Shown one piece after another: positions 648-57,700 of a stretch of DNA of 57,974 nucleotides. The DNA comes from Candidatus Shapirobacteria bacterium (lineage in GTDB: Bacteria; Patescibacteriota; Microgenomatia; UBA12405): assembly GCA_003250375.1 (NCBI GenBank), contig QKGR01000026.1:1-57974 (forward strand), given 5' to 3'. The notes beneath the pieces are model-generated. The model did no database searches, was not told where the DNA came from, and saw nothing but the letters and a program-made list of their open reading frames with translations. Position 1 is the stretch's first letter, and each line of letters opens with the position of its first letter. Made by a program: the position numbers and the translations under genes.

Positions 648-656
648 TGATATAAT
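648..656 (+). promoter_or_regulatory. extended -10 box TGATATAAT, 9 nt before ATG 666
   Basis: Read directly. Member of the recurrent TGnTAnnnT-start codon pattern. Confidence 0.5.
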
Positions 657-665
657 TCATGGAGA

Positions 666-3600
666 ATGGCACAAGGAAATATTGGACAAAATAATGTAGC
701 TGGAGTGCTAAGGGAAGTTAAGGAGCTGCGTGATAAAACTAAGACTTTTGATGGACTGAGTGAAGAAAGTAAATTGGTGATCGAAAAGTATGGAGCGGAA
801 ATTAATAGTAATGAAAGTTTGAATGAACTAATTACCTTTATTGATGTAGAACTGATTATTGAAAAGGATTTGTCGATTGAAGGATTGCTTGATAAGATCG
901 ATGAAAACAGATTATTAGATGATGATTCTGAAGATGATGGTGATTGGAATAAGGGAATTCCTGAAGAGAAAGAAGAAGATAATGAAGATGATCGGAACAA
1001 CGGAATTCCTGACGAAGAAGAAAGCGTCCCAAGTTCGGAGATAGAATTGGAAAGTAAGGTGCCGGATAGGATTTTGATGGAGGAATTGCTAAGAGAGTTG
1101 GATGAGCATGAAAAGAGTAAAGATAAGAGTAAATTATTGGAAAGTGCAAAAAAACTAGCAGAAAAGAAAGGTTATGCGAAAATTCGAGACCAAGTTGAAA
1201 GACTAATTGAGAAAAAAGTTGAATTGGAAGGAAAGATTGAAAGTGAACTTAGCACTAAGCAAATTAGCAGTGAAGAAAAAGAGATAGTAAGTGAAAGACT
1301 AAGCGAGGCGGTGGCCATAAGTTCAATAGCAATGGAGAACGAGAAGGCTGATAGTGCTGAAATTGCAAAAGTAGAAGAAGAAATTATTAAGAATGTCGAT
1401 AAATTGCTAGTAAACGAAGATACAGAGTTGTATAAGGCCGGAAGAGTAGTAGAAAATATTATTGATAAGGTAAATATTGAGGAAAGTAAAAAAGAACTAT
1501 TGGTTGAAAGTATAAGAGATGAATTAAGTGAAATTAGTGTGGAGAGAATAGCTTCCAAAGAAGCAGAAGAAATAATTCAGAGTTTTGAAGAGTTGAATAT
1601 TGCTAAAGAGACAAAGGTAAAAATTAGGGAAAGAATCGAAGAAAGGATTGTGGAGGTATATAGGGGTAACTTAATTGCAGTAGAATCGAGCCGAGTAGAC
1701 AGGAGTTCGGGACAAAGTAATACAGTGAGAATTGAAGATGAAATTAGACAAATAATAGAAGAAAGTAATACTTTGGGGGATGCAAAACAAATATCGAAGG
1801 ATATTACACAAAGAATTGAGGTAGCACTTAAGGAACCAAGAACAATTACAGATAATAGCGGACAAACAGTAGTATTACCTAGTTTGAATGATGAAATTAA
1901 AGTTAATACTCAAGAAAAAGCAGAGATTGTAGGTGGTTTTAGAAAAAATCTGATTGTAAGAGAATCGGTTGAAGTAGCATTGGAGGCTTGGAATAGGGGT
2001 GAAATTAGTGTTGAGGAAGTTGATGGAGCGTATGAGTCGGCAAGAATTGCAGCAAGAACGGCGTATCCAGATGGTGATTTTGTAAGAAACGAGAATAAAA
2101 TTGAGGAAAAAAATGAGAAAGGAAAGGAATTTTCGAAAATAATTAGTGGAATGGTGAGGAGTGAAACTCCAATTGAGGAACAAGTAAAAGAAGCAAGAGC
2201 AGCAATAAATAAAACAGGCAAGATTTACAATAAACTTCCAATTGAAGTAAAAGCGTTGGATAAGATCAGTTCAGAACTGGAAAAGAATAAGCCACTGGCA
2301 GAATTTTTTGAAAGGGTACGAAAGTTTACGGTGGCAAAAAGAAAAGCCGAGGAAAGGGTGTGGAGAGTAGCCAGCGATGTGGGTAGGTCGGTGGCAAAAA
2401 GCTTGGGAGTAAATATTACTTCGGAAACAATAAACAATATGGCTTTTATTGCCAGTGGTGGTTTGACGAGTCAGGCAATGTGGGCAATTGGACACCAGAT
2501 TATGTCGGGAGCTTTGCCGGCAACACTCGAAGGTATTGGAGCAGTATACACGAGTGGTGGATTTATGGCTGGGGCAACCCAAGCTTTTGAGTCCTTAGGA
2601 TTGTTAAACACACAGGGTGGAGTGGCAGCTTTGTCGTGGCTGGGGAAAGCAAGTGCAAACTTGAATAGCGTAGGAGCTAGAATTGCAGCAAGAAGCCCTG
2701 GTTTGGCAAAATTTGGATCGACAATTTCTAAACCGGTAGTAAATGGTTTGGGAAAAGGAATAAGTTCGGCGGCAAGATGGGCTAGTAGAGTAATACCAGC
2801 AGTGGCGAGTAAAATTGCTGCAATTGGGGGGAGCTTGGCACAGGCTTTGGTAGCATTACCAGAGCTAATTGGAGGAGCAATAGCAGCAATAATTCCGATT
2901 ATTGCAATTGTTGTTGTGGCGGTAATTGTGGGAATATTTGTAATTGCACTGATAAATGGGATGCAAACAGCTTCGGTAGTACCACCACCAACGGAAAATG
3001 TGAGTTGTGTACTTCTTGAAGATACAAAAGAAAATCAAGAAAGTGGACAGATTAACTGTAATCAGAGTTTGGATGAAAAGAATGTGCCTGGAGTAGATAG
3101 AGATAATTTCTTTAGAATGGCAGATCAGTGGAGAGGTGGAACAAATTATGCGAGAGAATGCTATAACGACGTGGTATGTAGAGCGAGATCGGTAGGTGTG
3201 GATGAAGCTTTTGCTTTGTGGGTGTGGTTGCATGAATCGGGAGCAAGTAATTATTCAATTAATGAGGTGGAAGATTTTGGAATACATGGACAGGCTGAAG
3301 TGCCAGTGAAGAATTTTGATAAACAAATTGATTACTTTTTAAGGTTGAGCCATACCAATGCTTGTCCAAATCTTGATTTTTGGCTGGGATGGTCGACTAA
3401 ATACTTAACAGGTGGGTGTGATCCTGACAAATTAGTAGGAGTGAACACAGGTAGGACATATTTGGCGGCATTACAGCAACAATATAATTGGATTACTTCA
3501 AAACCATTGCCGGCGCAAATTAAGAAAAATGGGACAGGAGAATCATGTGGATCGGGAGCTGATTATTCTGATGATAATACAAGTTATACCTATGTGGATG

Positions 3601-4175: not shown

Positions 4176-4196
4176 AGCTTAGTTTAAAATTAAATT

Positions 4197-5165
4197 ATGA
4201 ATAAGAAAAAAATTTTGATGGGAGTGGCAAGTGTGGGAATGGTAGGATTTTTGGTTTGGAACTTGTTTGGTAAAAAAACAAATCAAAATGGAGATATAGG
4301 AATTGATATACAGGCACCGGTTGAAGTAGTACCTATGGAAAGAGCAGCTAGGATTAGTTGGCAAATAAGTGGAGATAATTTGCCTAAAACAGCGAATATT
4401 TATATTGGAGAAACTGGAAATGGAGAAAACTTAGATAGATTGCTGAGCGAAGTGGGACTAAGTAGAAGTGAAGTAATTTCGGATGATCCACAAACTATTT
4501 TTTTGGGCAACAGTGCGACAAGAAAGAATGTATACATGTCTAAAAGTAATGGGAAGATAGGATTTAGTTTGGATATTTATTCGAGTGAGGATATACCTAA
4601 AGGAAACTTATTGAACGAAACAGAGGCGGAAGAAAAATTAGTGGACTTGATTAAAAGAATTGAAAATAATGATAAATTGGGGATAAAAATTAATTCGATA
4701 AAGTATAAAAAGGTACTTTTCCCAAGATGGGTAGAATCGACGAAGTCTGAGGCTGATGCGGTTGAGATCAGTGCCTCATGGACAATTGAGGGAATAGAAG
4801 TAAAAACATTTTATGATTCCCCTATTTTGGCTGTGTTTGGAAGAGGGGGAACAATAATTAAGCTGGAATATGTACCATTGGCAAAAGTTAATGAAAAGAA
4901 AGAAGTAAATTTGTTGAGTCTGACTGAAATACAAACTTTGAGTGAAGATAATTTTGGAATATGGAAAAAGGAAGGAAACACAAGTTATAGTTTGAGTGAA
5001 GATAAAGAAATTGTGGGACAAATAGTGGTAAGATCGATTGAATTGATTTATGTACAAGGAGATAGAAGTGAAAAGATTTGGCCTTATTATTTGATTGAAG
5101 GTAATAGTATTAGTAAAAATAATGGGCCAATTAAGGTGTATTTGATGGTTCGAGCAACAAAATAA
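4197..5165 (+). CDS. hypothetical membrane-anchored protein
   Basis: 322-aa ORF with N-terminal TM ILMGVASVGMVGFLVW. TAAAAT (4185-4190) lies 6 nt before the ATG. Confidence 0.55.
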   Translation: MNKKKILMGVASVGMVGFLVWNLFGKKTNQNGDIGIDIQAPVEVVPMERAARISWQISGDNLPKTANIYIGETGNGENLDRLLSEVGLSRSEVISDDPQTIFLGNSATRKNVYMSKSNGKIGFSLDIYSSEDIPKGNLLNETEAEEKLVDLIKRIENNDKLGIKINSIKYKKVLFPRWVESTKSEADAVEISASWTIEGIEVKTFYDSPILAVFGRGGTIIKLEYVPLAKVNEKKEVNLLSLTEIQTLSEDNFGIWKKEGNTSYSLSEDKEIVGQIVVRSIELIYVQGDRSEKIWPYYLIEGNSISKNNGPIKVYLMVRATK

Positions 5166-5625: not shown

Positions 5626-5634
5626 TGTTAAATT
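5626..5634 (+). promoter_or_regulatory. extended -10 box TGTTAAATT, 5 nt before ATG 5640
   Basis: Read directly. Confidence 0.45.
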
Positions 5635-5639
5635 TAATT

Positions 5640-5915
5640 ATGAAGAAATTATTAATAATAGCTTTGGTAGTAGTTAGTGGTTTGGGATTGGGAGGTTGTA
5701 CTAGCAGCGAGCCAAGCGAAAATAAAAGTACGGGAGTAGTGGAAATTAAGGGAACTTTGACGACAAAAATGGGAGATGAATATTTACTTAATACTGAAAG
5801 TGGAATAATAAACATAACAAGCAATATAGTGAATTTAGACAAAGAAATCGGGAAAGAGATTAAGGTAAAAGGAATGTACAGCGGGTCGACCTTGTATGTG
5901 GATGAGATTGAATAA
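5640..5915 (+). CDS. small lipoprotein
   Basis: MKKLLIIALVVVSGLGLGGC is a signal peptide plus lipobox. The track start at 5574 would translate a family A repeat (MKGGCKTRPY), so the internal ATG is preferred. Confidence 0.55.
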   Translation: MKKLLIIALVVVSGLGLGGCTSSEPSENKSTGVVEIKGTLTTKMGDEYLLNTESGIINITSNIVNLDKEIGKEIKVKGMYSGSTLYVDEIE

Positions 5916-5962: not shown

Positions 5963-7087
5963 TTAGTCCTGGAGACGGACAGGCATGATGACGTGGGTAT
6001 AGGAAGGATCGTGGGAATCATGGAAAAGACCAGGGCTAAGTGATTCATTGAGTTCGATAGTGATTTGATCGCCTTTGACGGAAGCAATGTAGTCGGAAAT
6101 AAATTTGTAGTTGAAAGCAATTTCGAGAGGGTTACCTTCGATTTTAGCTTCGACTTGAGCTTTGTTGTGGCCTAATTGAGGCGCGTTGGCAGTAATTTCG
6201 ACAGAATCGGATTTGAGACTAAAGCGGATAACATTGGCGGATTCACGAGCAAAAACAGAAGCAATTTTAATGGCTTGAGAAAACTCTTCCTTGTCGAGAG
6301 TGATTTTGGTAGCCGAAGTTTTGGGAATAATACGATTGTAGTCGGGAAATTCCCCTTCGACGAGACGAGAGACAATTTCGAGATCGTCGTAAACAAAAAC
6401 AACTTGATGCTGATCTTGAGTGAGACCAATTTTGATGGAAGAGACGTTTTTGGAAAGTCGAACAACTTCGGAAAGGGCTTTGGCGGGAATTAGATAGACA
6501 GCTTCTGATTGATCCTGATGAATTTGGATTGGATTGACTAATTTGATTTCTTTGAGAGAGAGGCGAAAACCATCGGTGGCAGCCATAGTGAAGGTGTCTT
6601 TGGTAAAGCGCCAATAGACGGCAGTGAGAACAGGACGAGTGTCATCGGCAGCGGCAGAAAAAACTGTTTGAGAAACAGATTGGGAGAGAAGTGAGTAATC
6701 GAGTTCGAAGGAGGTGGAAGGATCGAGGGAAGGGATTTGGGGAAAATCGGAAGGAGACATGGTGGCAAAAGATGATTCAGCTTTGGAAGAATTGACAGTA
6801 AGAAGGGAGGAATCGTTGAGTGAGAGAGAGATTTTGCCTGTGGGAAGATAGGAGACAAATTCTGTGATTTCTTTGGATGGTACGGTAATACTCCCCTGCT
6901 TGTCGATTTGGGCTGAGAGCCAATAATTGATTCCCATTTCGAGATTGGTGGCAGAAAGTTTGAGACGAGCAGCATCGGTGGAGATAAGAATATTGCCAAG
7001 AATGGGTAGTTGAGATTTGCCAGTACAAAAGCGAGAGACATGAGTGAGGGCGGTGTTGAGACTTTCCTGAAGAAGCGATACTTGCAT
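5963..7087 (-). CDS. dnaN: DNA polymerase III beta sliding clamp
   Basis: Lies downstream of dnaA and has a beta-clamp-like sequence throughout. ATG 7087 is preferred over the track TTG 7102 because TGTTAACAT lies 5 nt upstream of it. Confidence 0.9.
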   Translation of the reverse strand: MQVSLLQESLNTALTHVSRFCTGKSQLPILGNILISTDAARLKLSATNLEMGINYWLSAQIDKQGSITVPSKEITEFVSYLPTGKISLSLNDSSLLTVNSSKAESSFATMSPSDFPQIPSLDPSTSFELDYSLLSQSVSQTVFSAAADDTRPVLTAVYWRFTKDTFTMAATDGFRLSLKEIKLVNPIQIHQDQSEAVYLIPAKALSEVVRLSKNVSSIKIGLTQDQHQVVFVYDDLEIVSRLVEGEFPDYNRIIPKTSATKITLDKEEFSQAIKIASVFARESANVIRFSLKSDSVEITANAPQLGHNKAQVEAKIEGNPLEIAFNYKFISDYIASVKGDQITIELNESLSPGLFHDSHDPSYTHVIMPVRLQD

Positions 7088-7092
7088 GGTTG

Positions 7093-7101
7093 ATGTTAAC
7101 A
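7093..7101 (-). promoter_or_regulatory. extended -10 box TGTTAACAT (minus strand), 5 nt before dnaN ATG
   Basis: Read directly on the reverse complement. Confidence 0.45.
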
Positions 7102-9188: not shown

Positions 9189-9197
9189 TGATAAAAT
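9189..9197 (+). promoter_or_regulatory. extended -10 box TGATAAAAT, 7 nt before rpmH ATG
   Basis: Read directly. Confidence 0.5.
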
Positions 9198-9204
9198 AGT
9201 CGTC

Positions 9205-9342
9205 ATGGATAAAGGTACATATCAACCAAAAACAAAAAAAAGAGGACGAGTTCATGGCTTTCTGAAAAGAATGGCTTCGAAGTCGGGAAGAAACGTTCTA
9301 AAAAGAAGAAGGACAGTGGGAAGAAAGAAACTAACAGTGTAA
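9205..9342 (+). CDS. rpmH: 50S ribosomal protein L34
   Basis: 45-aa ORF absent from the track (below the size cutoff): [45 protein letters not shown]. Canonical L34 pattern, in the canonical position before rnpA. Confidence 0.9.
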
Positions 9343-9396: not shown

Positions 9397-9405
9397 TGGT
9401 AAGAT
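9397..9405 (+). promoter_or_regulatory. extended -10 box TGGTAAGAT, 5 nt before rnpA ATG
   Basis: Read directly. Confidence 0.45.
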
Positions 9406-9410
9406 AAATT

Positions 9411-9749
9411 ATGTTGAAAAAGATTAATAGATTATCGAGCCAGAAGGACTTTGAGGAACTAAAGAAGGAAGGGAGAAAGGTGTGGACTCCCCTATTTGGA
9501 TTGGTATATAAAGTTGACGGGGAAAGAAAAGAAGAGAAGAAGGTAGGAATGGTGGTGAGTAAGAAAATAAGTAAAAAAGCAGTGGAAAGAAATAAAATTA
9601 GGAGATTGATGGCTGAGGCAATAAGAAATTATTGGGAAGAAATACCTGAAGGATTTGTGGGGGTATTGTTGGCGACGAAACAGAGTTTGGGAAAGAAATT
9701 TGGTGAAATTGATGAGAAAATGGGAAAGATTGTTAAATTAATAAGATAA
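9411..9749 (+). CDS. rnpA: ribonuclease P protein component
   Basis: 112 aa and basic, with a KKINRLSSQKDFEEL start typical of RnpA. Synteny rpmH-rnpA-yidD-yidC. Confidence 0.85.
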   Translation: MLKKINRLSSQKDFEELKKEGRKVWTPLFGLVYKVDGERKEEKKVGMVVSKKISKKAVERNKIRRLMAEAIRNYWEEIPEGFVGVLLATKQSLGKKFGEIDEKMGKIVKLIR

Positions 9750-9788: not shown

Positions 9789-9992
9789 ATGAAAAAAATA
9801 ATTCTATATATTTTGAGATTTTATAAGAGGTATATTTCGAGAGGATATCATTGTAGATTTGTGCCGAGTTGTTCGGAGTATACATATGAGGCAGTGGAGA
9901 AATATGGAGTAATGAAAGGGTTGCTAAAAGGTGGGTGGAGAGTGTTGAGATGTAATCCTTGGAGTAAAGGTGGGGTTGATCTGGTAGAATAG
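9789..9992 (+). CDS. yidD: membrane protein insertion efficiency factor YidD
   Basis: MKKIILYILRFYKRYIS..CRFVPSCSEY matches YidD. The track start at 9756 would translate repeat sequence. Confidence 0.85.
   Translation: MKKIILYILRFYKRYISRGYHCRFVPSCSEYTYEAVEKYGVMKGLLKGGWRVLRCNPWSKGGVDLVE
9982..9990 (+). promoter_or_regulatory. extended -10 box TGGTAGAAT, 10 nt before yidC ATG
   Basis: Read directly. Overlaps the yidD stop. Confidence 0.4.
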
Positions 9993-10000
9993 TTGGAGTT

Positions 10001-10795
10001 ATGGACATATTAATAATACCTTTTGTGAATGCCTTGATGGCATTTTATTATTTGACAGGATCGCTGGGATGGGCGGTAATTATTGTGACAGTACTGGTAA
10101 AACTGGTACTTTTCCCACTAGTATTCCCCTCTTTGAAATCGGCAGAAAAAATGAGAGAGATTCAGCCGAAATTAAAAAAACTTCAGGAGAAATATGGGAA
10201 AGATAGTAAGGGTCTGGCGAGTGCGCAAATGGATTTGTATAGAAATGAAGGGGTGAACCCGATGTCGGGTTGTTTGCCTCAGTTGTTGCAATTGTTTGTG
10301 TTGATTGTGTTTTATCAGGCATTTAATAAGGTGGTAATGTTTGCAATGGATAAGGTAGCCTTGGTGGATATTAATAAGTTGTTGGTGAATGGATTTAAAT
10401 TAGATGAAGGAATTAAACTGTCGATGGACTTTTTGGGATCGAATTTGTCGTCGACTCCAAGTAGTACTTTTTCGAGTGGAAATTGGGCTGCAATTGTAAT
10501 TCCATTAATTTTATTGGTAGGTTCGGCATTGGGACAGTATTTGTCGGCTAAGTTGATGATGCCAAATAGTAAAAAGATTGATGAGAATGCCTTTACTAAA
10601 GCGACTCCAGATAAGGAAGACGATATGATGGCTATGATGAGAACACAGTCGACTTATATGATGCCCCTGATGACTTTGTTTATTGGTTGGAATTTTAATT
10701 TGGGAATTTTGCTGTATTGGTTTATTAATTCCTTTTTTGCATACGGACAACAATTGGTGGTGAATGAATTGGTGAAGAGGAATAAGAAAAAATAG
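10001..10795 (+). CDS. yidC: YidC/Oxa1-family membrane protein insertase (short form)
   Basis: 264 aa and polytopic, with GCLPQLLQLFVLIVFYQ. Supported by synteny. Confidence 0.9.
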   Translation: MDILIIPFVNALMAFYYLTGSLGWAVIIVTVLVKLVLFPLVFPSLKSAEKMREIQPKLKKLQEKYGKDSKGLASAQMDLYRNEGVNPMSGCLPQLLQLFVLIVFYQAFNKVVMFAMDKVALVDINKLLVNGFKLDEGIKLSMDFLGSNLSSTPSSTFSSGNWAAIVIPLILLVGSALGQYLSAKLMMPNSKKIDENAFTKATPDKEDDMMAMMRTQSTYMMPLMTLFIGWNFNLGILLYWFINSFFAYGQQLVVNELVKRNKKK

Positions 10796-10839: not shown

Positions 10840-10848
10840 TGATAGAAT
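10840..10848 (+). promoter_or_regulatory. extended -10 box TGATAGAAT, 7 nt before ATG 10856
   Basis: Read directly. Confidence 0.5.
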
Positions 10849-10855
10849 AGTGACC

Positions 10856-11344
10856 ATGGATAACAAAGAAAGAAATGAACAAATTATGGCAATTACAATG
10901 GAGTTACTGGAGTTCCTGAACCAGGAAGTGAGCAACGCTTTTGTAGAAGATATTGAAAGCGAAGAAAATAACCAAGTAATGATTGGGTTGACAGTGTCGA
11001 ATCCAGCATTATTGATCGGTTTTAAGGGTAAAAATTTGGCAGCGTTGCAATTGCTTTTGGCTTTGATGGTGAAAAAGAAATTGGGTGCTTGGGTGAGAGT
11101 ATTAGTAGATGTGAATGATTATAGAAATGAACAAAGAGAAAGATTGGAGACTATGGCAAGAAATTGTGCGACAAAAGCAATACAAACTGGCAATCCGGTG
11201 GCTTTGGCTAGCATGAGCTCGTATGAAAGAAGAATTTGTCATATGGTACTGCAAACAATTGAAGGAATTGAAGAAGAAAGTGTGGGTGAAAATGACGATA
11301 GGCATATTGTGATTAAGCCTTTGGGAACAGTAGAGACTGAATAA
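10856..11344 (+). CDS. jag: Jag/KhpB-type RNA-binding protein (KH + R3H)
   Basis: R3H-like C-terminus (SYERRICHMVLQ..DDRHIVIKP) and a position after yidC. ATG 10856 was chosen over the track TTG 10829 because of the -10 spacing. Confidence 0.75.
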   Translation: MDNKERNEQIMAITMELLEFLNQEVSNAFVEDIESEENNQVMIGLTVSNPALLIGFKGKNLAALQLLLALMVKKKLGAWVRVLVDVNDYRNEQRERLETMARNCATKAIQTGNPVALASMSSYERRICHMVLQTIEGIEEESVGENDDRHIVIKPLGTVETE

Positions 11345-11358: not shown

Positions 11359-11367
11359 TGAGATAAT
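11359..11367 (+). promoter_or_regulatory. extended -10 box TGAGATAAT, 8 nt before GTG 11376
   Basis: Read directly. Confidence 0.4.
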
Positions 11368-11375
11368 AGTTGGAA

Positions 11376-12716: not shown

Positions 12717-12722
12717 TAAGAT
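12714..12722 (+). promoter_or_regulatory. extended -10 box TGATAAGAT, 6 nt before GTG 12729
   Basis: Read directly. Overlaps the ligase stop. Confidence 0.45.
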
Positions 12723-12728
12723 AAGGAT

Positions 12729-13952
12729 GTGATTAAAGGGGTAATAAGAAATACAGCAGTGCAAACACTGGGAAAGGTAGTAATGGTGCTAGTGAGCCTA
12801 GTGACGACAGGAATACTGACTCGGAGATTGGGAGTGAATGGATATGGAGCTTTTACACTAACGACATCGATATTTCTGCTGATTGATAGCTTGGCGGATA
12901 TGGGGACGAGGATGATTGGGGTGAGAGAGGCGGCTAAGTGTGAGAACTGGAAAAGTAAAAAGAAGGTGCTGGTGAATGTATTTATACTTAGAAAAATATT
13001 AGCTTTGGCGGCATTTGTTCTAGGATTGGGGTTGGTAGCTTGGTACCCAGGATTTGAGGGATTTAGATGGTGGGCTTTAGTGGCTTTGGGGATGAGCTTG
13101 ATGACTAGCTTGGCAGGAGATGAAGAAATAGTGTTCCAGACGGAAGCGAGACTTGATTTGAAGACTATTATGGACGTGCTCTACCCTATTGGATTTTTGG
13201 TAATGGCAATATTTTTAGGTGATAATTTGAGCTTGGGATGGGCTTTTTTGGGATATTTGATTAGCCGAATAATTAGTATTGGGGTGGGATGGAAATTGAT
13301 GCTGGTGAAAATTAAGAAGATTGATTTTGGAGATTGGAGAGATGTGGTGGAAACAAAATTGTGGTGGAAACTGCTGAAACAGAGCTGGCCAATGGGAGTG
13401 TATATGTTGGTATTTATTGGCTACGACAGGGCGGCAGATTCGATGATGATTCGAGCCTTTTGGGACGAGACATATGTGGCAAGCTATGGATTAGCCTACA
13501 AAATGTATAGCAATTTGATTACTCCGGCCTATTTTTTGGCGAGCGCGGTGTTCCCTATTATGGCCAAAAACCAGGAAAAAAATGTGACGAGAAAATCGCT
13601 TTTTGTAGCTGGATTGATGATTTTGTCGATAGTACCGATAGTGTATTTTCTAGCTCCTTGGATGGTGCAAATTTTGGCGGGAAGCGATTTTGATATGGCG
13701 GCGACAGTACTAAGAATTTTGTTGGGAGCGCTGGTGTTTTCATATATAAACCACATAGTTGGATTTAGATTAATTTCGAAAGAAGGACAGAAGGAATTGC
13801 TTTGGTTGGGAGTGTCGGCGCTAGTAATTAATATAAGCCTAAATTGGATTTTTATACCTAAATACGGAATTATTTCGGCGGCATGGGTGACTGTGTGGAC
13901 GGAAGCGGTGATGCTTTTGATGACTTTGATTTCGCTAAGAAAGAAAAATTAA
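12729..13952 (+). CDS. Wzx/MOP-family polysaccharide flippase-like membrane protein
   Basis: 407 aa with ~12 hydrophobic segments. The N-terminus VQTLGKVVMVLVSLVTTGILTRRLG is typical of polysaccharide biosynthesis (PST) proteins. Lies next to the O-antigen ligase. Confidence 0.65.
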   Translation: MIKGVIRNTAVQTLGKVVMVLVSLVTTGILTRRLGVNGYGAFTLTTSIFLLIDSLADMGTRMIGVREAAKCENWKSKKKVLVNVFILRKILALAAFVLGLGLVAWYPGFEGFRWWALVALGMSLMTSLAGDEEIVFQTEARLDLKTIMDVLYPIGFLVMAIFLGDNLSLGWAFLGYLISRIISIGVGWKLMLVKIKKIDFGDWRDVVETKLWWKLLKQSWPMGVYMLVFIGYDRAADSMMIRAFWDETYVASYGLAYKMYSNLITPAYFLASAVFPIMAKNQEKNVTRKSLFVAGLMILSIVPIVYFLAPWMVQILAGSDFDMAATVLRILLGALVFSYINHIVGFRLISKEGQKELLWLGVSALVINISLNWIFIPKYGIISAAWVTVWTEAVMLLMTLISLRKKN

Positions 13953-47072: not shown

Positions 47073-47181
47073 GAGAAATCAACTAAATCTCCCTTTGACA
47101 AGGGAGACTTAAAAGATAAAACAGATTGTTAATATATCCGCTTTCGCTGAAGCTTCAGCGTGACAAGGGCGGATTTTTTTT
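47057..47181. repeat. direct repeat copy 1 (5S 3' end + downstream hairpins + terminator)
   Basis: GGTCGCGGCCGGAATTGAGAAATCAA...GTGACAAGGGCGGATTTTTTTT is repeated at 47469-47603. Confidence 0.9.
47136..47181 (+). terminator. rho-independent terminator after 5S rRNA
   Basis: ATCCGC...CGCTGAAGCTTCAGCG (perfect palindrome)...GCGGAT, followed by T8. Confidence 0.6.
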
Positions 47182-47189
47182 GGTATCAT
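47181..47189 (+). promoter_or_regulatory. extended -10 box TGGTATCAT, 6 nt before ATG 47196
   Basis: Read directly. Confidence 0.45.
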
Positions 47190-47195
47190 GATTTC

Positions 47196-47465
47196 ATGAA
47201 CATGGTTTTGTTGGTAGTTATTTTGTCCTGTGCATTGATGATGATATTTTGGTTAATAAAACATATTAATCTAGTATTGAAGAATTACGGCATTAGGATA
47301 AAGATAGGTGGAGATTACAATGGGACTTCAATGAGTTTTGTGAAACCAGGACAGGCGAGTTTTTATGAAAAATTTAGATTGAAAGTGTTAGTGATCACTT
47401 ATTTATTTTTTATTTTTTATTTAATTCTCATATTGTATAGAATAGTTTTGAGAATGATAGGATAA
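47196..47465 (+). CDS. small two-TM membrane protein (orphan) nested between the direct repeats
   Basis: In-frame ATG within track ORF 47160..47465: MNMVLLVVILSCALMMIFWLI....LVITYLFFIFYLILILY. The insert is AT-rich. Confidence 0.4.
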   Translation: MNMVLLVVILSCALMMIFWLIKHINLVLKNYGIRIKIGGDYNGTSMSFVKPGQASFYEKFRLKVLVITYLFFIFYLILILYRIVLRMIG

Positions 47466-47666: not shown

Positions 47667-47675
47667 TGCTAGAAT
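47667..47675 (+). promoter_or_regulatory. extended -10 box TGCTAGAAT, ~105 nt upstream of rpsA (one of the few genes with a long leader)
   Basis: Read directly. Confidence 0.4.
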
Positions 47676-48944: not shown

Positions 48945-48953
48945 TGGTATAAT
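48945..48953 (+). promoter_or_regulatory. extended -10 box TGGTATAAT, 7 nt before ATG 48961
   Basis: Read directly. Confidence 0.55.
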
Positions 48954-48960
48954 AGGCAGT

Positions 48961-49206
48961 ATGGTAAATAATAAAATTGAAGAAATGCTTAATCCGTTTG
49001 TTGGACGATTGTGTAGAAATTGTGGTGAGGATGGATGTCCGAAGACAATAGTTGTTGATGATGGTAATAGTGTGTTGCCACATTGTTATAGAAAAAGAGA
49101 TAGGGTGACTAATCTCATGTTACTTTTGGTTGAAGAGTATCCCGAGATGTCGGATGCTACAGTGGAGAAAATTGATCAGTATCTGGGTGAAATTGTTTGT
49201 CGATAG
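48961..49206 (+). CDS. hypothetical small Cys-containing protein
   Basis: 81 aa with CRNCGEDGC..HC (zinc-ribbon-like). Confidence 0.4.
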   Translation: MVNNKIEEMLNPFVGRLCRNCGEDGCPKTIVVDDGNSVLPHCYRKRDRVTNLMLLLVEEYPEMSDATVEKIDQYLGEIVCR

Positions 49207-49224
49207 AAATTAATATATGGAAAG

Positions 49225-49458
49225 ATGGGGTGTTGTCGTAGATTTCCAGAAGTACAAATTGAAGCACTAAGTTTGCTTAATTATGTGTGTCCGATGAAAA
49301 GAGGTGGGGTATGTGGTATGGTTGGAATTGGGGACCAAACTTGTGATTATGAGAGATCGGAACTAGGGCAGGATAGGAAAAGTGTGGCTTATGGGGAGGT
49401 GGTGCAAGAGAGAAAAAAACAACATGGAATAATTTCAAGGAAGGATAAGGTATTATAA
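49225..49458 (+). CDS. hypothetical small protein
   Basis: 77-aa ORF. TAATAT lies 8 nt upstream of the ATG. Confidence 0.3.
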   Translation: MGCCRRFPEVQIEALSLLNYVCPMKRGGVCGMVGIGDQTCDYERSELGQDRKSVAYGEVVQERKKQHGIISRKDKVL

Positions 49459-49466
49459 TTGTAGAT

Positions 49467-49814
49467 ATGAAAAAACAAAAAGAAGTAGAAAAGGGAATTA
49501 GCTATGATACAAAAACAATAATTACGGTGATCTGTTTGGTGGTACTGTATCCTGTTGGAGTGGTGTTGATGTTTGTGTGGATGAAGTGGAAGTGGTGGGT
49601 AAAATTGTTGGTGTTGTTGCCAGTTTCATTGTTTATATTTTTGCCAATATTGGCGGCAGCAATTTTGATAGCAATTAATCCAAGTGCCCAAATTGAGAAG
49701 GCTAAAAAGGTAAATGACTGTAATACTGTTTGTGCGATGAAGTATGATGATAGTCAGAGTGTGGATATGTGTATAAAAGAATGTGTGGCTACGACAGTTG
49801 GACAAGAGGAGTAG
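49467..49814 (+). CDS. hypothetical membrane protein
   Basis: 115 aa with three hydrophobic helices. TATAAT (49454-49459) lies 7 nt before the ATG. Confidence 0.45.
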   Translation: MKKQKEVEKGISYDTKTIITVICLVVLYPVGVVLMFVWMKWKWWVKLLVLLPVSLFIFLPILAAAILIAINPSAQIEKAKKVNDCNTVCAMKYDDSQSVDMCIKECVATTVGQEE

Positions 49815-49834
49815 AAAGGGTTATGATGGTGTAG

Positions 49835-50056
49835 ATGCCAGAAAATTGTGCGTGGTGCAGAAAAGTTAAAAGTGACGTAGGTTTGTGGTTGGATGGAAGT
49901 ATGTACGTATGTTTTAGTCCAAGATGTAAAAGCAGATTTGCAAGAAGAGTGTTGACAGTTGAACACGGAGAGGTAAGGAATTGTCATAAAGAGAATGCAA
50001 AGGCGAATAGGCGAAGAATACGGCAAGCTAAGGCAGAAAATCAAACAACTTCGTGA
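49835..50056 (+). CDS. hypothetical zinc-ribbon-like basic protein
   Basis: 73 aa with CAWC..C..PRC. TATGAT (49822-49827) lies 7 nt before the ATG. Confidence 0.4.
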   Translation: MPENCAWCRKVKSDVGLWLDGSMYVCFSPRCKSRFARRVLTVEHGEVRNCHKENAKANRRRIRQAKAENQTTS

Positions 50057-50142: not shown

Positions 50143-50151
50143 TGGTAGAAT
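50143..50151 (+). promoter_or_regulatory. extended -10 box TGGTAGAAT, 5 nt before ATG 50157
   Basis: Read directly. Confidence 0.5.
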
Positions 50152-50156
50152 GAGTG

Positions 50157-51548
50157 ATGAAGAAAATTTCAGGAACTGTTTTTGTGTGTTCAAATTGTGG
50201 AAATGAATTTAGGAGATGGGCGGGACAGTGCCCGAGTTGTAAGGAATGGAATAGTTTGAAAGAAGTGACAGGGAGAATTTCGGGGACAACATCGAAAGGG
50301 GGAAGAGTACAGAGGTCCTCCCGGACAGAAAATAAAAGTGAGGTCGTAAATTTGGGCCGCCTTCGTCAAAACTCCGGCGAGCCGAGGGAAATTGTAGATG
50401 TGTTTTCGACCAACATAGGGGAATTTGATAGAGTATTGGGTAAGGGAGTTGTTCGAGGAGCAGTGGTGCTGTTTGCGGGAGAGCCAGGGATTGGAAAGTC
50501 GACACTTTTGACGCAACTTGTGGGTAATGTTGGTGGGTTGTATGCGGCAGGAGAGGAGTCGGCGGAGCAGATTGGATTGAGAGTGAAGAGATTGGGTTTG
50601 GATGCAAATAAGTTCGATGTTTTAGGGACAAATTCAATTGATGAAATTATTGAAGTTTTGGAACGAACAAATAAGTTGTACAAATTAGTGGTGGTGGACA
50701 GTATTCAGGTGATGATGGCGTCGGAGGCGAGTGGAGCGACGGGGTCGCCGAGCCAAATTAGGGAAGGAACCTTCCGACTAGTAGAAGCAGCAAAAAGATT
50801 GGGGGTGGCAATTTTTATTGTGGGGCATGTGACCAAAGACGGGGACATTGCCGGACCGAAATTGTTGGAGCATATGGTGGACACGGTACTTTATTTTGAG
50901 GGAGAGAAAAATGGAGACTTGAGAATTTTGAGATGTAGTAAGAATCGATTTGGAAGTAATGATGAGGTGGGAGTGTTCGTGATGGAAGAAAAAGGATTGA
51001 AGGAAATGAGATCGGATGAAATTAATTTGGTTGCGTCGAATGCGATGGCGCCTGGAAAAGTTTTGACGGTGGTGATGGAGGGGAGCAGACCGATGATGGT
51101 GGAGATTCAGGCTTTAGTGACCGAAAGTTTTGGACAGTTTCCAAAAAGAGTATTTTCGGGAGTGGATTTTAATAGAGGACAATTACTGATGGCGGTGGCT
51201 CAGAAGGTGCTGGGAATTCCGATGTATAACCAGGATGTGTATGTGTCGGTGAGTGGAGGACTACGAATTGAAGATACGGGAGCAGATTTGGCAGTGGTGG
51301 GAGCGATATGGAGTAGTTTTAAAAATCAAGCGTTAAAATCCGCCCCTAACCCATCCTTTGACAAGGAGGGGAAAAACGATGGGCAGACACACCGGTCTGC
51401 CCGTACTAATGTTTTGTGTGGGGAAGTGTCGCTTTTGGGAGAAGTGAAGAAAGTACGAGGCTGGGAAAGAAGAAAAAAAGAGGCTGAAAGATTGGGGAGG
51501 AAGATGGTGGAAATAGAGAAATTGGTGGATTTGAAAAAGATGGTTTAA
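50157..51548 (+). CDS. radA: DNA repair protein RadA/Sms, with an in-frame repeat-derived insertion
   Basis: Zinc finger CSNCG..CPSCKEWNS, Walker A GEPGIGKSTLL, KNRFG motif, and a Lon-like C-domain. The track start GTG 50154 is also possible. Confidence 0.9.
   Translation: MKKISGTVFVCSNCGNEFRRWAGQCPSCKEWNSLKEVTGRISGTTSKGGRVQRSSRTENKSEVVNLGRLRQNSGEPREIVDVFSTNIGEFDRVLGKGVVRGAVVLFAGEPGIGKSTLLTQLVGNVGGLYAAGEESAEQIGLRVKRLGLDANKFDVLGTNSIDEIIEVLERTNKLYKLVVVDSIQVMMASEASGATGSPSQIREGTFRLVEAAKRLGVAIFIVGHVTKDGDIAGPKLLEHMVDTVLYFEGEKNGDLRILRCSKNRFGSNDEVGVFVMEEKGLKEMRSDEINLVASNAMAPGKVLTVVMEGSRPMMVEIQALVTESFGQFPKRVFSGVDFNRGQLLMAVAQKVLGIPMYNQDVYVSVSGGLRIEDTGADLAVVGAIWSSFKNQALKSAPNPSFDKEGKNDGQTHRSARTNVLCGEVSLLGEVKKVRGWERRKKEAERLGRKMVEIEKLVDLKKMV
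51330..51410. repeat. 81-nt repeat-derived insertion inside radA (hairpin TCCTTTGACAAGGA + family A variant GGGCAGACACACCGGTCTGCCCGTAC at 51381-51406)
   Basis: Encodes ALKSAPNPSFDKEGKNDGQTHRSARTN between conserved RadA blocks. Confidence 0.8.
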
Positions 51549-51929: not shown

Positions 51930-52064
51930 ATGATATTTATACGTATTGATACATGAAACATGAATTATGATTCATGAATATATAAATATAGGATACTGAT
52001 AAAAAGACGAGATAATTAATATGGGATATAGACATGGCAAAAAGGGAATTATATAATGAGATTA

Positions 52065-52193
52065 ATGATTAGCTGGATTAAAAAGTTACTCGGGAAAAGT
52101 GAAGTTAAGAAATCGAAGGAAGTGGCTAATAAGTGGGCGAGAACACAGATTCGGGAGATGGCAAAACTGAAAGGAAAGCTGATTCTGATGTAG
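52065..52193 (+). CDS. candidate 42-aa basic small ORF (speculative)
   Basis: TATAAT (52052-52057) lies 7 nt before the ATG: MISWIKKLLGKSEVKKSKEVANKWARTQIREMAKLKGKLILM. Below the track size cutoff. Confidence 0.2.
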   Translation: MISWIKKLLGKSEVKKSKEVANKWARTQIREMAKLKGKLILM

Positions 52194-52695: not shown

Positions 52696-52734
52696 GAGAG
52701 AAGAAATTATGAAGAGAATTGTCTATACTGAAGT

Positions 52735-54153
52735 GTGAAATTTAGAAGTTGGTATGTAGTACTTGGATTGGTAGTAGTATTGTGCTGGCCAATGAGCGTG
52801 GAAGCAGTGGAACCTAAGGGAAATATAGATGGAATTTCGAATGGGGTGATAAGTGGCTGGGCCTATGATCCTGATGAGCCGAGCAAATCGATAACAATAC
52901 ATGTGTATGTGGATGGGCCAGTGGGAAATGGAAGAGTGGTAGGATCGGCAACAGCAAATAAACTAAGAAATGATGTGAATGCGGCTTACGGAATAAGCGG
53001 GAATCATGGATTTGGATTTACAATACCGAGTGAATTGTTGAAAGGGTATAGGAAATTTTATGTGTATGCGATTGATAGTCAGGGTGGGGTGAATCCTTTG
53101 GTGGCGGGAAGTCCAAAAGAAAATGGGGTGCGTCCGACGGGAAATATGAGTATTAGTAAGTCGGTACTAGGAAGTGAATTGAAAATTACGGCGATGGAAA
53201 GATTTGGAGGAGCAATTGGGTCGCTAACTTGGAAGGGAGTGGAATTTGTGGATATTGCTGACCATGGAAGGCAATTGCAAAGCGCTTGTCATTTTGATGA
53301 TGAAGGCGAGTGCTACAATCCAACGGAAGCAGGGTCGATGGCTGACGGAACAAAACAAACGTCGACTTCGGAATGGCAGTATGGGAGTAATGAGGGAGGA
53401 GCGCTGAAAACTCAATCGAGAATGGCTTTTTGGTTGAGCCCAGGAGGGGTGCTTGGGGGAGGATGTGTGAGTGGGAGGGTGATTAATACTGCGCCGGTGT
53501 CGAATTTTATTTTTGGCAAGGAAATTAAGATTGGATATGATAACTGGGAAAACGTGATTGAGTATGATGTGAATTTTTGGGTGGCAGAGGATCATGGGAA
53601 GGGGGTGTTTGAAATTTTGACGGGGTATATGCCGATTAAATTTAATAAATTTTATGCCTTTGATAAGGCAACAAAATCGATTAAAAGTATTGTTTCGGGG
53701 GGAAGTGATAAGCCGGTGATTCAGGCGACAGCAGATGGGAGCTTGGCGATGGGGATTTATACGCCATGGAAACAATTGGGGGTGAGGGGGACTGATTATT
53801 ATGCGGCTTATTATTCGGTGAGAGATTTTAGTGATGTGAGCGTGGCGGCAACAAAATGGAATGTGGCGATGCATAACATGACAGCGAAAAAAGGAAATTA
53901 TGCATTTAAGAATTTTGTAATAGTAGGAAGTTTGGAGGAGGTGGTGAAGACGATGGGAGAGTTGATGGATTTTGAAGAAAGTGATTTGGAAGGTGACGCA
54001 AATGGAGACGGAAAGGTAGACTTGGAAGATTTTGTGATTTGGAGAGGGGAATATACAGGGGTATTGAATACAAAGAGGGCGGATTTTAATGGGGATGGAA
54101 AAGTTGATTTGGGGGATTTTGTGGTGTGGAGGGGAGCTTATGTGGGGAATTAG
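52735..54153 (+). CDS. secreted modular protein: shared N-module, unknown central domain, C-terminal paired dockerin-like repeats
   Basis: Signal peptide MKFRSWYVVLGLVVVLCWPMSVEA. The N-module is similar to the next gene. GDANGDGKVDLEDFVIWRGEY and ADFNGDGKVDLGDFVVWRGAY. TATACT lies 5 nt before the GTG. Confidence 0.65.
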   Translation: MKFRSWYVVLGLVVVLCWPMSVEAVEPKGNIDGISNGVISGWAYDPDEPSKSITIHVYVDGPVGNGRVVGSATANKLRNDVNAAYGISGNHGFGFTIPSELLKGYRKFYVYAIDSQGGVNPLVAGSPKENGVRPTGNMSISKSVLGSELKITAMERFGGAIGSLTWKGVEFVDIADHGRQLQSACHFDDEGECYNPTEAGSMADGTKQTSTSEWQYGSNEGGALKTQSRMAFWLSPGGVLGGGCVSGRVINTAPVSNFIFGKEIKIGYDNWENVIEYDVNFWVAEDHGKGVFEILTGYMPIKFNKFYAFDKATKSIKSIVSGGSDKPVIQATADGSLAMGIYTPWKQLGVRGTDYYAAYYSVRDFSDVSVAATKWNVAMHNMTAKKGNYAFKNFVIVGSLEEVVKTMGELMDFEESDLEGDANGDGKVDLEDFVIWRGEYTGVLNTKRADFNGDGKVDLGDFVVWRGAYVGN

Positions 54154-55675: not shown

Positions 55676-55708
55676 GAAATTTAGAAGAGAATTGTTTATA
55701 CTGAGAGT

Positions 55709-57700
55709 GTGAAATGCTACAAATGGAGTTTATGGTTGGGATTGATACTGATATCGTGTTGGCCAAGAGGGGTAGAGGCGGCGTCGGCAGAACATTTGAA
55801 AAATGTGCAGGAAATGACTTTGGGGAAGATTGCCAGAATTTCGGATTTGTATCCAAGTAATGATACTAATTCGACCTATTTTAAGACGATAATTGATTTT
55901 AGTAATAAGGGCTATACGATTTTTAATGTGAGATTGCCGGGGAAGTTGGATGATACGGCAGGAAGTGTGAAGATGGCGGTGGAGATGATGAAAAAGATTG
56001 ATACGACAACAGGGAAGAAAAATAAATATTTGGTGAATGTGGATATTTATACTGCGAATTCGAGTAGTTTATTGAAGGACAGATTGAATAATGGGAAAGA
56101 GATAGTTCAGTCGTCAATAATATGTCCGAATTTTGCTTTTGTAGATGTGACTGATACAAATCAAAGGAAGTATGTAATAGATTATTCTTCGGAATATACA
56201 AGACTAATGAATGCATCGGAAATTGGAAGCCAGGTGGTGGGGTATTTACCATACTATGGAATGTATGGAGAGACGGGAATCTATGTGGGAGATGCGGGGT
56301 GTAGTGGTAGAAATGGTGAATTTGATAGCTTTAAACATGGTTATTTGGATGTGGTAGCAGGGTATTCGGTGAATAGTTTGACTGAATTTAAGAGCTTTTA
56401 TGCGACGAAAAAGACTGAAGGAGTAATTCCGGCCAATAGTGCAGTGGATGCATTGGTGGACAAAATAGATGTGAATGTGAGTTCGACTTGGCCAAAGCCG
56501 AGTGAATATGAGGCTAATAGAATTATGTATGCCTATTATTTGATGTATAGAAAAGGTGAGTCGAGAAGTTTTAATGGAGAAATTGCAAAAGCAATTGCTG
56601 GGTCGGGAGAAAGTAAGGCAATAGCTTCATTTTGTTATTTGCCGGTGAGGTATGCTCAGGCAGCTAATGGCTGGGCTGATTTTCCCGGGGCAGATTTTTG
56701 TATGGCACAAATTGGAACAGGAACTTATGGAACTAGAAAGATACTGTTGGAGACTGATTGTGTTGGTGGGAGCGATTATTCTGGGGGTAATTCTTGTTCG
56801 AGGTCGGGTAGTAATTGGTTTAGAGTGGAGACAGAGAGGACTATAAAAATGGGAGGGAATACTGCAACATTTAACAGAGCAGAGTATTGGCCAGATGAGG
56901 TGAACGCGGTGACTGAGGGGCTAAATAACAGGAGTAGTCTGTTGAATAATCAATATAAATATAGTAGACAAATTGCAATTTTAATTCCAAGTTATTCGAG
57001 AGCATTGATTAAACAGTCCAGTGGAGACCCTGCTTTTAGATTGGCCTTATTGGAACATAACTTGACAGTGGTGAGTAAATTGAATGAATTGGGTGTGTCG
57101 TATGATTTTATTTCAGAAGACGAGCTGTTTGATTTGGATGGTTTGAAGAATTATAAAGTTATCGTGATTCATGATCAGAATTTATTTTCAAAGTTGTTCC
57201 CAAGCCAATGGCAGAAGTTTTTGGCTAGGTACGCGGGGGTGGCTTTTGGTGATAATAACGGAAGTTTAGATTATGCTGGGTTGGTAACAAGAGTGAGGAA
57301 TTCGGTGATGAATGTGGCTGATAGGTGTGCGAATATTTGTACTAACGCGACTTATGCTTATTTGGAAAATACGAGTTGTAGAAAGACTTGTCCGGCGGCT
57401 ACAGCATTGGCAACAGCGACGCCAACAATTAAAGCAACAGCGACGCCAACTATTATGCCGAGTCCAACCGTAACAATTAAGCCAAGCGCAACGGCGACGA
57501 TTAAGCCAAATGCAACAGCAACGCCAAGCATGGCAAAGGTAGTAGGAGATGCTAATGGGGATGGGAAAGTAGAACTAGATGATTTTGTGATTTGGAGAAG
57601 TGAGTATTTGGGAAATGTGACAACAAAGAAAGCTGATTTTAATGGAGATGGGAAAGTAGAGTTGGATGATTTTGTAGTGTGGAGAGGGAGGTATATTTAG
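55709..57700 (+). CDS. secreted protein, unknown large domain, ATATP-type linkers, C-terminal paired dockerin-like repeats
   Basis: Signal peptide MKCYKWSLWLGLILISCWPRGVEA. ATATPTIKATATPTIMPSPTVTIKPSATATIKPNATATPS linker. The dockerin pair is identical in protein sequence to that of the preceding gene, apart from a few residues. TATACT lies 6 nt before the GTG. Confidence 0.65.
   Translation: MKCYKWSLWLGLILISCWPRGVEAASAEHLKNVQEMTLGKIARISDLYPSNDTNSTYFKTIIDFSNKGYTIFNVRLPGKLDDTAGSVKMAVEMMKKIDTTTGKKNKYLVNVDIYTANSSSLLKDRLNNGKEIVQSSIICPNFAFVDVTDTNQRKYVIDYSSEYTRLMNASEIGSQVVGYLPYYGMYGETGIYVGDAGCSGRNGEFDSFKHGYLDVVAGYSVNSLTEFKSFYATKKTEGVIPANSAVDALVDKIDVNVSSTWPKPSEYEANRIMYAYYLMYRKGESRSFNGEIAKAIAGSGESKAIASFCYLPVRYAQAANGWADFPGADFCMAQIGTGTYGTRKILLETDCVGGSDYSGGNSCSRSGSNWFRVETERTIKMGGNTATFNRAEYWPDEVNAVTEGLNNRSSLLNNQYKYSRQIAILIPSYSRALIKQSSGDPAFRLALLEHNLTVVSKLNELGVSYDFISEDELFDLDGLKNYKVIVIHDQNLFSKLFPSQWQKFLARYAGVAFGDNNGSLDYAGLVTRVRNSVMNVADRCANICTNATYAYLENTSCRKTCPAATALATATPTIKATATPTIMPSPTVTIKPSATATIKPNATATPSMAKVVGDANGDGKVELDDFVIWRSEYLGNVTTKKADFNGDGKVELDDFVVWRGRYI
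57512..57700. repeat. second copy of the 189-nt dockerin-encoding segment
   Basis: See 55487-55675. Confidence 0.85.

Follow-up and report, generated by a model that had tools for sequence, protein, structure and literature searches.

Where do transcription and translation begin in a locus in which a promoter-like hexamer stands directly in front of most start codons? This question is raised by a stretch of 57,974 bp from Candidatus Shapirobacteria (Microgenomates, candidate phyla radiation (CPR); GC content approximately 40-41%), the whole of which is hereafter called the window. The window carries dnaA, dnaN, rpmH, rnpA, yidD, yidC, jag, ftsH, radA, and rpsA, a 23S-5S rRNA unit, tRNA-Ile, and tRNA-Ala, together with families typical of CPR (DUF4012, DUF6909, five T4SS_pilin paralogues, and dockerin proteins). 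An earlier inspection of its letters, the sequence-only reading, had proposed that a -10 box of the form TAnnnT, often extended by a preceding TGn, abuts almost every start codon with no Shine-Dalgarno (SD) sequence in between, and that the genes are predominantly leaderless and individually promoted. In the present analysis, this proposal was evaluated against decoy codons and related loci. We consider it likely that the leaderless extended -10 layout is the main expression route in this genome.

Forty-eight protein genes of the window were curated using Pfam model positions, homologue alignments, and open reading frame (ORF) structure. The gap was defined as the number of nucleotides (nt) between the 3' end of the hexamer and the start codon, and 1,300 internal in-frame ATG/GTG/TTG codons served as decoys. 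A gene lying no more than 30 nt behind a same-strand gene was regarded as tightly packed. The closest genomic relatives by YidC (53-59% identity) were Candidatus Shapirobacteria metagenome-assembled genomes (MAGs), nearly all DnaN matches bearing a name were Candidatus Shapirobacteria, and the best 120 DnaN matches were all at least 60% identical. Exact-protein contig searches gave no match for DnaA and DnaN and a single 3.1-kb Logan contig for YidC. Relatives were compared at the Shapirobacteria level. A metagenome scan yielded 80 further loci with YidC 53-61% identical, and the 59 loci that reached 4 kb were pooled to give 543 genes, whose starts were set without regard to the motif. All pooled loci were centred on yidC and therefore report selection on approximately the same gene set rather than genome-wide generality; breadth comes from the 48 different genes of the window. 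The public annotation of the contig (NCBI, JGI) was used for the comparison of starts. No 16S gene was present in the window or in the 86 loci retrieved; hence, the anti-SD was taken as canonical in the SD tests.

A -10-like hexamer at a gap of 4-11 nt was found upstream of 34 of the 48 curated genes (71%), and the best box lay at a gap of 5-8 nt in 28 genes (58%). The most frequent gaps were 5 nt (8 genes), 6 nt (8 genes), and 7 nt (9 genes), followed by 8 nt (3 genes). Half of the boxes (17/34) had the extended TGn, compared with 5.4% of all TAnnnT copies in the window. The 25 hexamers listed in the sequence-only reading were all found in place with gaps of 5-10 nt, although two of them, before 11376 and 40379, read GATAAT and not TAnnnT; boxes absent from that list include those before 14367, 22789, 49225, and 42038. 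A box before "almost every start" was too much to claim, since the layout holds for a majority, approximately 56-71% of the genes. The 14 genes with no box were 5167, dnaA, yidD, 21043, 24767, 30421, 31383, 31806, 33976, 36684, 37606, 41603, rpsA, and 54089.

TAnnnT itself is common, with 2080 copies on both strands of the window. Upstream of the 48 starts, it occurred 7.25 times per position at gaps of 5-8 nt and 1.0 time per position at gaps of 15-54 nt. Among the decoys, 11.9% had a qualifying hexamer and 0.54% had the extended form, giving binomial P values of 3e-21 and 1e-26, respectively. When a free choice of five candidate starts per gene was allowed for, the P values were 7e-4 (hexamer) and 3e-15 (extended form). 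Longest-ORF starts, which are blind to the motif, had a box in 37% of cases vs 11.8% for decoys. In the 543 pooled genes, TAnnnT was present at gaps of 5, 6, 7, and 8 nt in 16.4%, 25.6%, 10.5%, and 6.6%, respectively, vs 0.6-2.5% of decoys, and TGnTAnnnT in 3.3%, 11.6%, 7.0%, and 2.9%, vs no more than 0.2% of decoys. A positional peak beyond chance, which the sequence-only reading had required of a genome-wide profile, was present both in the window (gap 5-7 nt) and in the related loci (gap 6 nt). An unsupervised Gibbs sampler run on motif-blind starts of the window and related loci L002-L006 (130 genes) recovered G-n-T-A-n-n-A-T, its spacing peaking where a hexamer gap of 5-6 nt would lie.

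Of the 30 genes with open space or a divergent neighbour upstream, 24 carried a box (80%; 14 extended, 47%), compared with 10 of the 18 tightly packed genes (56%; 3 extended, 17%). The case for individual promotion is weaker for the tightly packed class. Upstream stop codons were considered as the sole source of the pattern and rejected, because the signal was strongest where no upstream gene was nearby.

In five Shapirobacteria MAGs, dnaN, rpmH, rnpA, yidC, jag, Polysacc_synt, and ftsH kept TGnTAnnnT or TAnnnT 5-7 nt before the homologous start. The sequence further 5' of the kept boxes had diverged, and the flanks were not conserved. For ftsH, TGGTATAAT was found 6 nt before the ATG in L002, L004, and L006. 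Conservation per gene was counted on distinct upstream sequences. The box was present in 34/34 for dnaN, 54/59 for jag (52 extended), 33/34 for Polysacc_synt, 19/19 for DUF4012 (TAnnnT at gaps of 5-8 nt), 9/9 for rpmH (all extended), 31/47 for rnpA, and 40/66 for yidC (extended in 37/66). It was present in 8/41 for dnaA and 5/35 for yidD. The split between genes with and without a box is stable across relatives.

SD sequences were scarce, as the sequence-only reading had noted for the interval between box and start. An SD 4-mer between -20 and -4 was found in 3 of the 48 genes, and, with the canonical anti-SD assumed, the mean duplex energy was -2.3 kcal/mol at real starts vs -4.45 kcal/mol at decoys. 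The sole canonical SD was AGGAGG with a 7-nt spacer before ATG 24767 (24753..24769, + strand), an energy outlier (-12 kcal/mol) in which the start forms an ATGA overlap with the upstream stop. The 14 boxless genes contained this SD and one GAGG 4-mer (54089). In the 543 related-locus genes, SD 4-mers were at no position above the decoy level. Loss of the anti-SD has been reported mainly in a Parcubacteria subgroup (PMC9297842). L007 (Pseudogemmobacter), a candidate positive control for SD detection, was left unused, as calling the longest ORFs greedily is unreliable at high GC.

Start codons were selective. Behind extended boxes, ATG was found 148 times, GTG 47 times, and TTG 5 times, TTG making up 40% of candidate codons; behind the boxes of the window, the counts were 29, 5, and 0, respectively. 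C occupied position -1 in 25% of starts behind extended boxes vs 8% of all candidates, which, with a purine as the first codon base, fits initiation at a pyrimidine-purine step, i.e., a transcription start at the codon. In mycobacteria, a 5' ATG or GTG has been experimentally shown to be necessary and sufficient for the translation of leaderless mRNAs (PMC4633059). The view of the sequence-only reading that GTG-initiated leaderless genes would be unusual was not borne out. Besides the mycobacterial rule, rnpA has ATG in the window and GTG in 37/47 relatives, and Polysacc_synt has GTG in the window and ATG in 32/34 relatives. Since GTG and ATG alternate between orthologues, GTG-initiated leaderless genes appear normal in this lineage.

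The starts themselves were compared with homologues and public records. Homologue alignments began at residue 1 for DnaN, Jag, YidC, RpmH, and Polysacc_synt and at residues 1-3 for FtsH. Box-defined starts were identical to recorded contig products (NCBI, JGI, or Logan) for 22 of the 28 genes looked up, including the GTG starts 11376, 12729, and 55709. The contention that the box picks better starts than the longest-ORF rule held for dnaN, jag, ftsH, 5640, and 28939, whose box-defined products are public proteins and agree with homologue alignments. Logan calls gave 659 aa for ftsH and 545 aa for the 28939 gene, vs 646 and 539 aa from the starts that the boxes define. Starts not on record were 40379, 52735, 50157 (exact product), 22789, 22896, rpmH 9205, and 42038 (recorded as 42032).

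Is the box a promoter element? In hexamer-aligned sites, positions that had not been selected for gave A at -9 in 62%, A at -8 in 76%, T at -15 in 62%, and G at -14 in 62%. A at -11 and T at -7 were near-invariant, and the region from -17 to -19 was T-rich. No -35 signal was found in the aligned box sites. A scan for classical -35/-10 pairs in three segments gave 45 vs 49.0, 65 vs 40.9 (sd 6.7), and 35 vs 38.5 in shuffles, a scan blind to promoters without a -35 element and hence uninformative here. TGnTAnnnT was also found 46 nt 5' of tRNA-Ile at 40043 (TGTTATACT, 39988..39996, + strand), the single RNA-gene example. Two genes that the sequence-only reading had set apart as exceptions carried it further upstream: rpsA (leader of approximately 105 nt), with TGCTAGAAT approximately 106 nt 5' of ATG 47782 (47667..47675, + strand) and two hairpins in the leader, and 41603, with TGATATAAT 25 nt 5' of the ATG (41569..41577, + strand) and a short leader without SD. 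The motif before an untranslated gene and before leadered genes argues for a promoter element acting independently of translation and not for a ribosome site. Moreover, the boxes before 9411, 47196, and 48961 directly adjoin the end of a terminator-like hairpin or T-run. Transcripts of these genes must begin within the remaining 15 nt or so, too short a stretch for a leader. The positional statistics, the match to the extended -10 consensus, the lack of SD, the ATG/GTG starts, conservation, and the motif at the tRNA and leadered genes together give good support to reading the boxes as predicted promoter -10 elements, set so that transcription would begin 0-3 nt from the start codon.

In the proposed mechanism, a sigma-70-type promoter without a -35 element, often with an extended -10 (consensus T-15 G-14 n T A w A A T), would serve as the main expression route. 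RNA polymerase would start on the A or G of ATG/GTG or 1-3 nt ahead of the codon. Neither a 5' leader nor an SD would be present in the mRNAs, and the ribosome with initiator tRNA would bind the 5'-terminal AUG or GUG. Approximately 55-70% of the window genes would follow this layout, some of them in tight clusters, where the box falls in the 3' end or stop of the preceding gene. The leadered genes would form a stable minority, consisting of dnaA, yidD, rpsA, 41603, several pilin and ATP-grasp genes, and the stop-start coupled 5167 and 24767, all without SD except 24767. Of the proposal of the sequence-only reading, the leaderless core would thus stand, its extent having been overstated.

Several points weigh against this interpretation. 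The transcription start and leaderless translation are what we infer from sequence. The motif also precedes more than half of the tightly packed genes; a motif before internal genes is the argument used with GeneMarkS-2 for a non-SD ribosome site over a promoter (PMC6028130). In some packed genes, the hexamer overlaps a TAA or TAG stop, which raises the chance rate. Weak or oddly spaced boxes number approximately 6 of 34 (22896, gap 4 nt; 33016 and 38377, gap 11 nt; 32172; 35500; 42038). The gene finders behind public starts may model the motif, so the agreement with public starts is supportive and not independent. The pooled loci sample largely one gene set around yidC, and the SD tests depend on an assumed anti-SD, the 16S 3' end lying outside the data.

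The alternative that survives best, although we regard it as unlikely, is that the motif is a non-SD initiation element of the Bacteroidetes "group B" kind, i.e., an A/T-rich signal in leadered, largely polycistronic mRNAs that is read by the ribosome or S1. With SD nearly absent, leadered genes would need another signal, the motif of packed genes sometimes lies in the upstream coding sequence (yidC, 12729), and the gaps seen here share the range of ribosome-site spacers (5-10 nt). However, the consensus matches an extended -10 position by position (TG at -15/-14, A-11, T-7), and the motif is rarer before packed genes than before the others, above all in its extended form. The boxes before tRNA-Ile and far 5' of rpsA and the terminators abutting the motif at three genes also speak against a ribosome site. 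The consistent lack of the motif before dnaA and yidD across relatives is unlike a general ribosome signal, and TTG starts are nearly excluded.

A slightly less probable alternative accepts the boxes as real promoters and places +1 a few bases further 5', giving leaders of approximately 3-8 nt, or takes them mainly as internal promoters, with translation following some other SD-independent route. Gaps of 8-11 nt at six genes (666, 10001, 11376, 28939, 33016, and 38377) would leave 1-4 nt or more, and the distance from -10 to the start site differs between species (PMC12641261). The modal gaps, in contrast, put +1 on or beside the start codon, the C at -1 with a purine codon base fits a start exactly at the codon, and the restriction to ATG/GTG fits 5'-terminal initiation. 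Least credible by a wide margin is an artefact of AT-rich intergenic DNA, upstream stops, and motif-chosen starts: some starts in the sequence-only reading were indeed chosen by the motif, the hexamer is common, and accepting any candidate in the first 20 codons puts the motif before 30% of decoys, but this explanation is already contradicted by the excess at motif-blind starts (37% vs 12%), the sharp gap-6 peak in the relatives' 543 genes, a more than 50-fold enrichment of the extended form, a sevenfold drop in motif density farther from the starts within the same intergenic DNA, and the confirmation of most starts by homologue alignments and public annotation.

A broader version of the leaderless promoter reading is more tentative, and we give it a little less than an even chance. 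In it, Shapirobacteria, and possibly Microgenomates, would have nearly abandoned SD initiation, with well over half of the genes leaderless from extended -10 promoters without -35, including those in compact clusters. If true, the organization would come near to "one gene, one leaderless transcript", with one of the highest leaderless fractions in bacteria and in a reduced-ribosome lineage, and the remaining leadered genes would depend on some SD-independent route.

The individual sites are described below; coordinates run from the box through the start codon, on the + strand unless the - strand is given. TGATATAAT precedes ATG 666 of an M23 peptidase-domain protein of 1169 aa (648..668, gap 9 nt), TAAAAT precedes ATG 4197 of a hypothetical protein of 322 aa (4185..4199, gap 6 nt), and TGTTAAATT precedes ATG 5640 of a hypothetical protein of 91 aa (5626..5642, gap 5 nt), whose box was not kept in seven relatives. 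Behind TGTTAACAT, dnaN starts at ATG 7087 (7085..7101, - strand, gap 5 nt), its 374-aa product being that of the public annotation, with homologues of 370-375 aa. The boxes of rpmH (L34; ATG 9205) and rnpA (ATG 9411) are TGATAAAAT (9189..9207, gap 7 nt) and TGGTAAGAT (9397..9413, gap 5 nt), respectively, the latter directly 3' of the terminator-like hairpin at 9369-9389. For yidC (ATG 10001), TGGTAGAAT falls in the end of yidD, stop codon included (9982..10003, gap 10 nt). jag/KhpB-like ATG 10856 follows TGATAGAAT (10840..10858, gap 7 nt), and GTG 11376 of a Wzy_C-domain protein follows TGAGATAAT, which contains the GATAAT hexamer (11359..11378, gap 8 nt). In TGATAAGAT, before GTG 12729 of Polysacc_synt (12714..12731, gap 6 nt), the TGA is the stop of the upstream gene. 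The starts at 666, 4197, 5640, 10856, 11376, and 12729 are those of the public annotation, as is ATG 18187 of an 83-aa product behind TGGTAATAT (18171..18189, gap 7 nt). ATG 14367 of the DUF4012 protein is preceded by TATGGT (14356..14369, gap 5 nt), and ATG 18544 of ftsH, whose 646-aa product is that of the NCBI/JGI annotation, by TGATATAAT (18528..18546, gap 7 nt).

Further along, TATCAT precedes ATG 22789 of DUF6909 (22787..22801, - strand, gap 6 nt), and TATAAT precedes ATG 25058 of a 729-aa product (25045..25060, gap 7 nt). On the - strand, TGATAAAAT is found before ATG 28939 of a 539-aa product (28937..28956, gap 8 nt), and two T4SS_pilin family genes have TGCTATAAT before ATG 30810 (30808..30824, gap 5 nt) and TAGAAT before ATG 32877 (32875..32890, gap 7 nt). 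GTG 40379 of a GH18 protein is the second start behind TGAGATAAT with GATAAT (40364..40381, gap 6 nt), and ATG 42746 of a 201-aa product follows TATACT (42735..42748, gap 5 nt). TGGTATCAT, directly 3' of a T-run, precedes ATG 47196 of an 89-aa product (47181..47198, gap 6 nt), and TGGTATAAT, directly 3' of a terminator hairpin and T-run ending at approximately 48943, precedes ATG 48961 of an 81-aa product (48945..48963, gap 7 nt). A series of short genes follows, with TAATAT before ATG 49225 (77 aa; 49211..49227, gap 8 nt), TATAAT overlapping the upstream stop codon before ATG 49467 (115 aa; 49454..49469, gap 7 nt), and TATGAT before ATG 49835 (73 aa; 49822..49837, gap 7 nt). The box of radA at ATG 50157 is TGGTAGAAT (50143..50159, gap 5 nt). 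Both dockerin proteins start with GTG behind TATACT, at 52735 (52724..52737, gap 5 nt) and 55709 (55697..55711, gap 6 nt), and their upstream regions are paralogous.

Promoters with a -35 element were also seen. TTGACT-17-TAAAAT (43373..43401, + strand) is a classical promoter 5' of tRNA-Ala, 23S, and 5S. TAGACA-17-TATAAT (11/12 matches) stands, with a gap of 7 nt, before ATG 52065 of a predicted 42-aa ORF beginning MISWIKKLLGKSEV (52029..52193, + strand). The surrounding 1.2-kb stretch has no curated gene and only short uncurated minus-strand ORFs, and 52065-52193 is a candidate small leaderless gene. TTGACA-17-TAGAAT at 57837-57865 is close to a consensus promoter; the sequence from there to the window end looks non-coding, and the promoter may belong to the missing 16S rRNA gene.

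Other features of the window were recorded in passing. The rpsA leader (47676-47781, approximately 100 nt) contains a hairpin and T-run resembling a terminator (47733-47751), and another GC hairpin (ccgcctcgtcggcgg) whose end is 7 nt from the ATG; the two hairpins would fit attenuation or autoregulation of S1. The five tandem T4SS_pilin (PF18895) paralogues occupy 30427-32877 on the - strand, with a start box at 30810 and 32877 and a weaker one at 32172, and neither box nor SD at 31383 and 31806. The rRNA region (40043-47070) is split, four protein genes (40379-43351) lying between tRNA-Ile and tRNA-Ala/23S/5S, with no 16S adjoining. The "23S rRNA intervening sequence protein" (PF05635) is encoded at 20666-21064 (- strand), far from the 23S and beside DUF6909.

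Repeats were found as well. A direct repeat of approximately 126 nt (89-96% identical; 47057-47182 and 47469-47604), which takes in the 5S rRNA 3' end and downstream hairpins, flanks the 89-aa ORF at 47196-47465. The first copy extends into the TGGTATCAT box, in place of which the second has TGTGATAAC; the arrangement looks like an insertion or duplication around the small gene. The last 24 nt of tRNA-Ile (40095-40118) are repeated exactly at 40182-40205, 87 nt downstream, and may be the remnant of an attachment-site duplication from an integrated element. The octamer GCCCGTAC has 11 copies, all on the + strand, vs 0.36 expected (5596, 9165, 9386, 11783, 12205, 12268, 18101, 44620, 47636, 51399, and 51694). 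In the intergenic copies at 9165, 9386, 47636, 51399, and 51694, the octamer supplies the 3' side of a GC-rich hairpin stem (GGGCGGG..CCCGCCC, then GTAC). The hairpin element is also present 5' of yidD in relative L004 and may be a terminator-like or REP-like repeat.

The window has an extreme excess of G over C on the + strand throughout (skew 0.19-0.49 per 4 kb, mean approximately 0.40; 0.27-0.36 in related loci). The skew is independent of gene orientation, the minus-strand genes at 27320-32877 being C-rich on their own coding strand. No switch of skew is found near dnaA and dnaN, both minus-strand genes.

The layout has practical consequences for gene calling. Most CPR genomes are auto-annotated metagenome bins. 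Longest-ORF or SD-based finders misplace starts in the window, and a promoter-aware model also exposes small ORFs such as 52065-52193. The first genetic tools for Patescibacteria need promoters and translation signals, and a minimal expression cassette would consist of a 9-nt extended -10 box, 6 nt, and ATG. Leaderless initiation is often viewed as ancestral. A deep-branching, ribosome-reduced lineage that is rich in leaderless genes and poor in SD would be a useful comparison for the loss or retention of initiation mechanisms.

No report of leaderless or SD-poor initiation was found for Patescibacteria, CPR, Saccharibacteria, TM7x, or Microgenomates, per-genome GeneMarkS-2 group assignments lying outside this search. 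The layout itself is known from other bacteria, and the known mechanism is unchanged; it is the occurrence in this lineage that was not found reported. Haloarchaea and Sulfolobus (group D) resemble the window in that genes are largely leaderless, in the window by prediction, with a minor role for SD, but their archaeal TATA box lies approximately 22-26 nt upstream and serves another transcription machinery. Bacteroidetes (group B) are likewise nearly free of SD and have an A/T-rich signal shortly 5' of starts, including those of some internal genes. In contrast, the signal here is promoter-like (TG, T-7), enriched before the first genes of clusters, absent from a fixed subset of genes, and found before a tRNA. 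The extended -10 sigma-70 promoters of E. coli and Gram-positive bacteria share the TG one base 5' of TAnnnT and T-rich -17 to -19, and the boxes here would likewise need no recognisable -35; those promoters normally drive leadered mRNAs with SD, whereas the boxes here abut the start codon.

The closest counterpart is group C of the GeneMarkS-2 classification, in which leaderless genes at the head of an operon have a Pribnow box approximately 10 nt from their start (PMC6028130). Group C genomes are frequent among Actinobacteria and Deinococcus-Thermus, and 25-50% of their transcripts are predicted to lack a leader; the spacer in leaderless genes of M. tuberculosis is 6-8 nt, and 167 of the 262 Deinococcus deserti genes with experimentally mapped starts are leaderless (PMC6028130). 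In these groups (Mycobacterium, Streptomyces, and Corynebacterium among the Actinobacteria), as in the window, a Pribnow-type TAnnnT stands 6-8 nt before many starts with no SD in between, starts are restricted to ATG/GTG, and leadered genes occur in the same genome. The leaderless fraction predicted here is comparable to that of Deinococcus deserti. The differences are that group C uses SD for leadered and internal genes, whereas boxless and internal genes of the window mostly have none, and that in the window half of the boxes are extended -10 elements with no -35 and boxes also occur inside tight clusters, in a CPR/Patescibacteria lineage with a small genome and a reduced ribosome.

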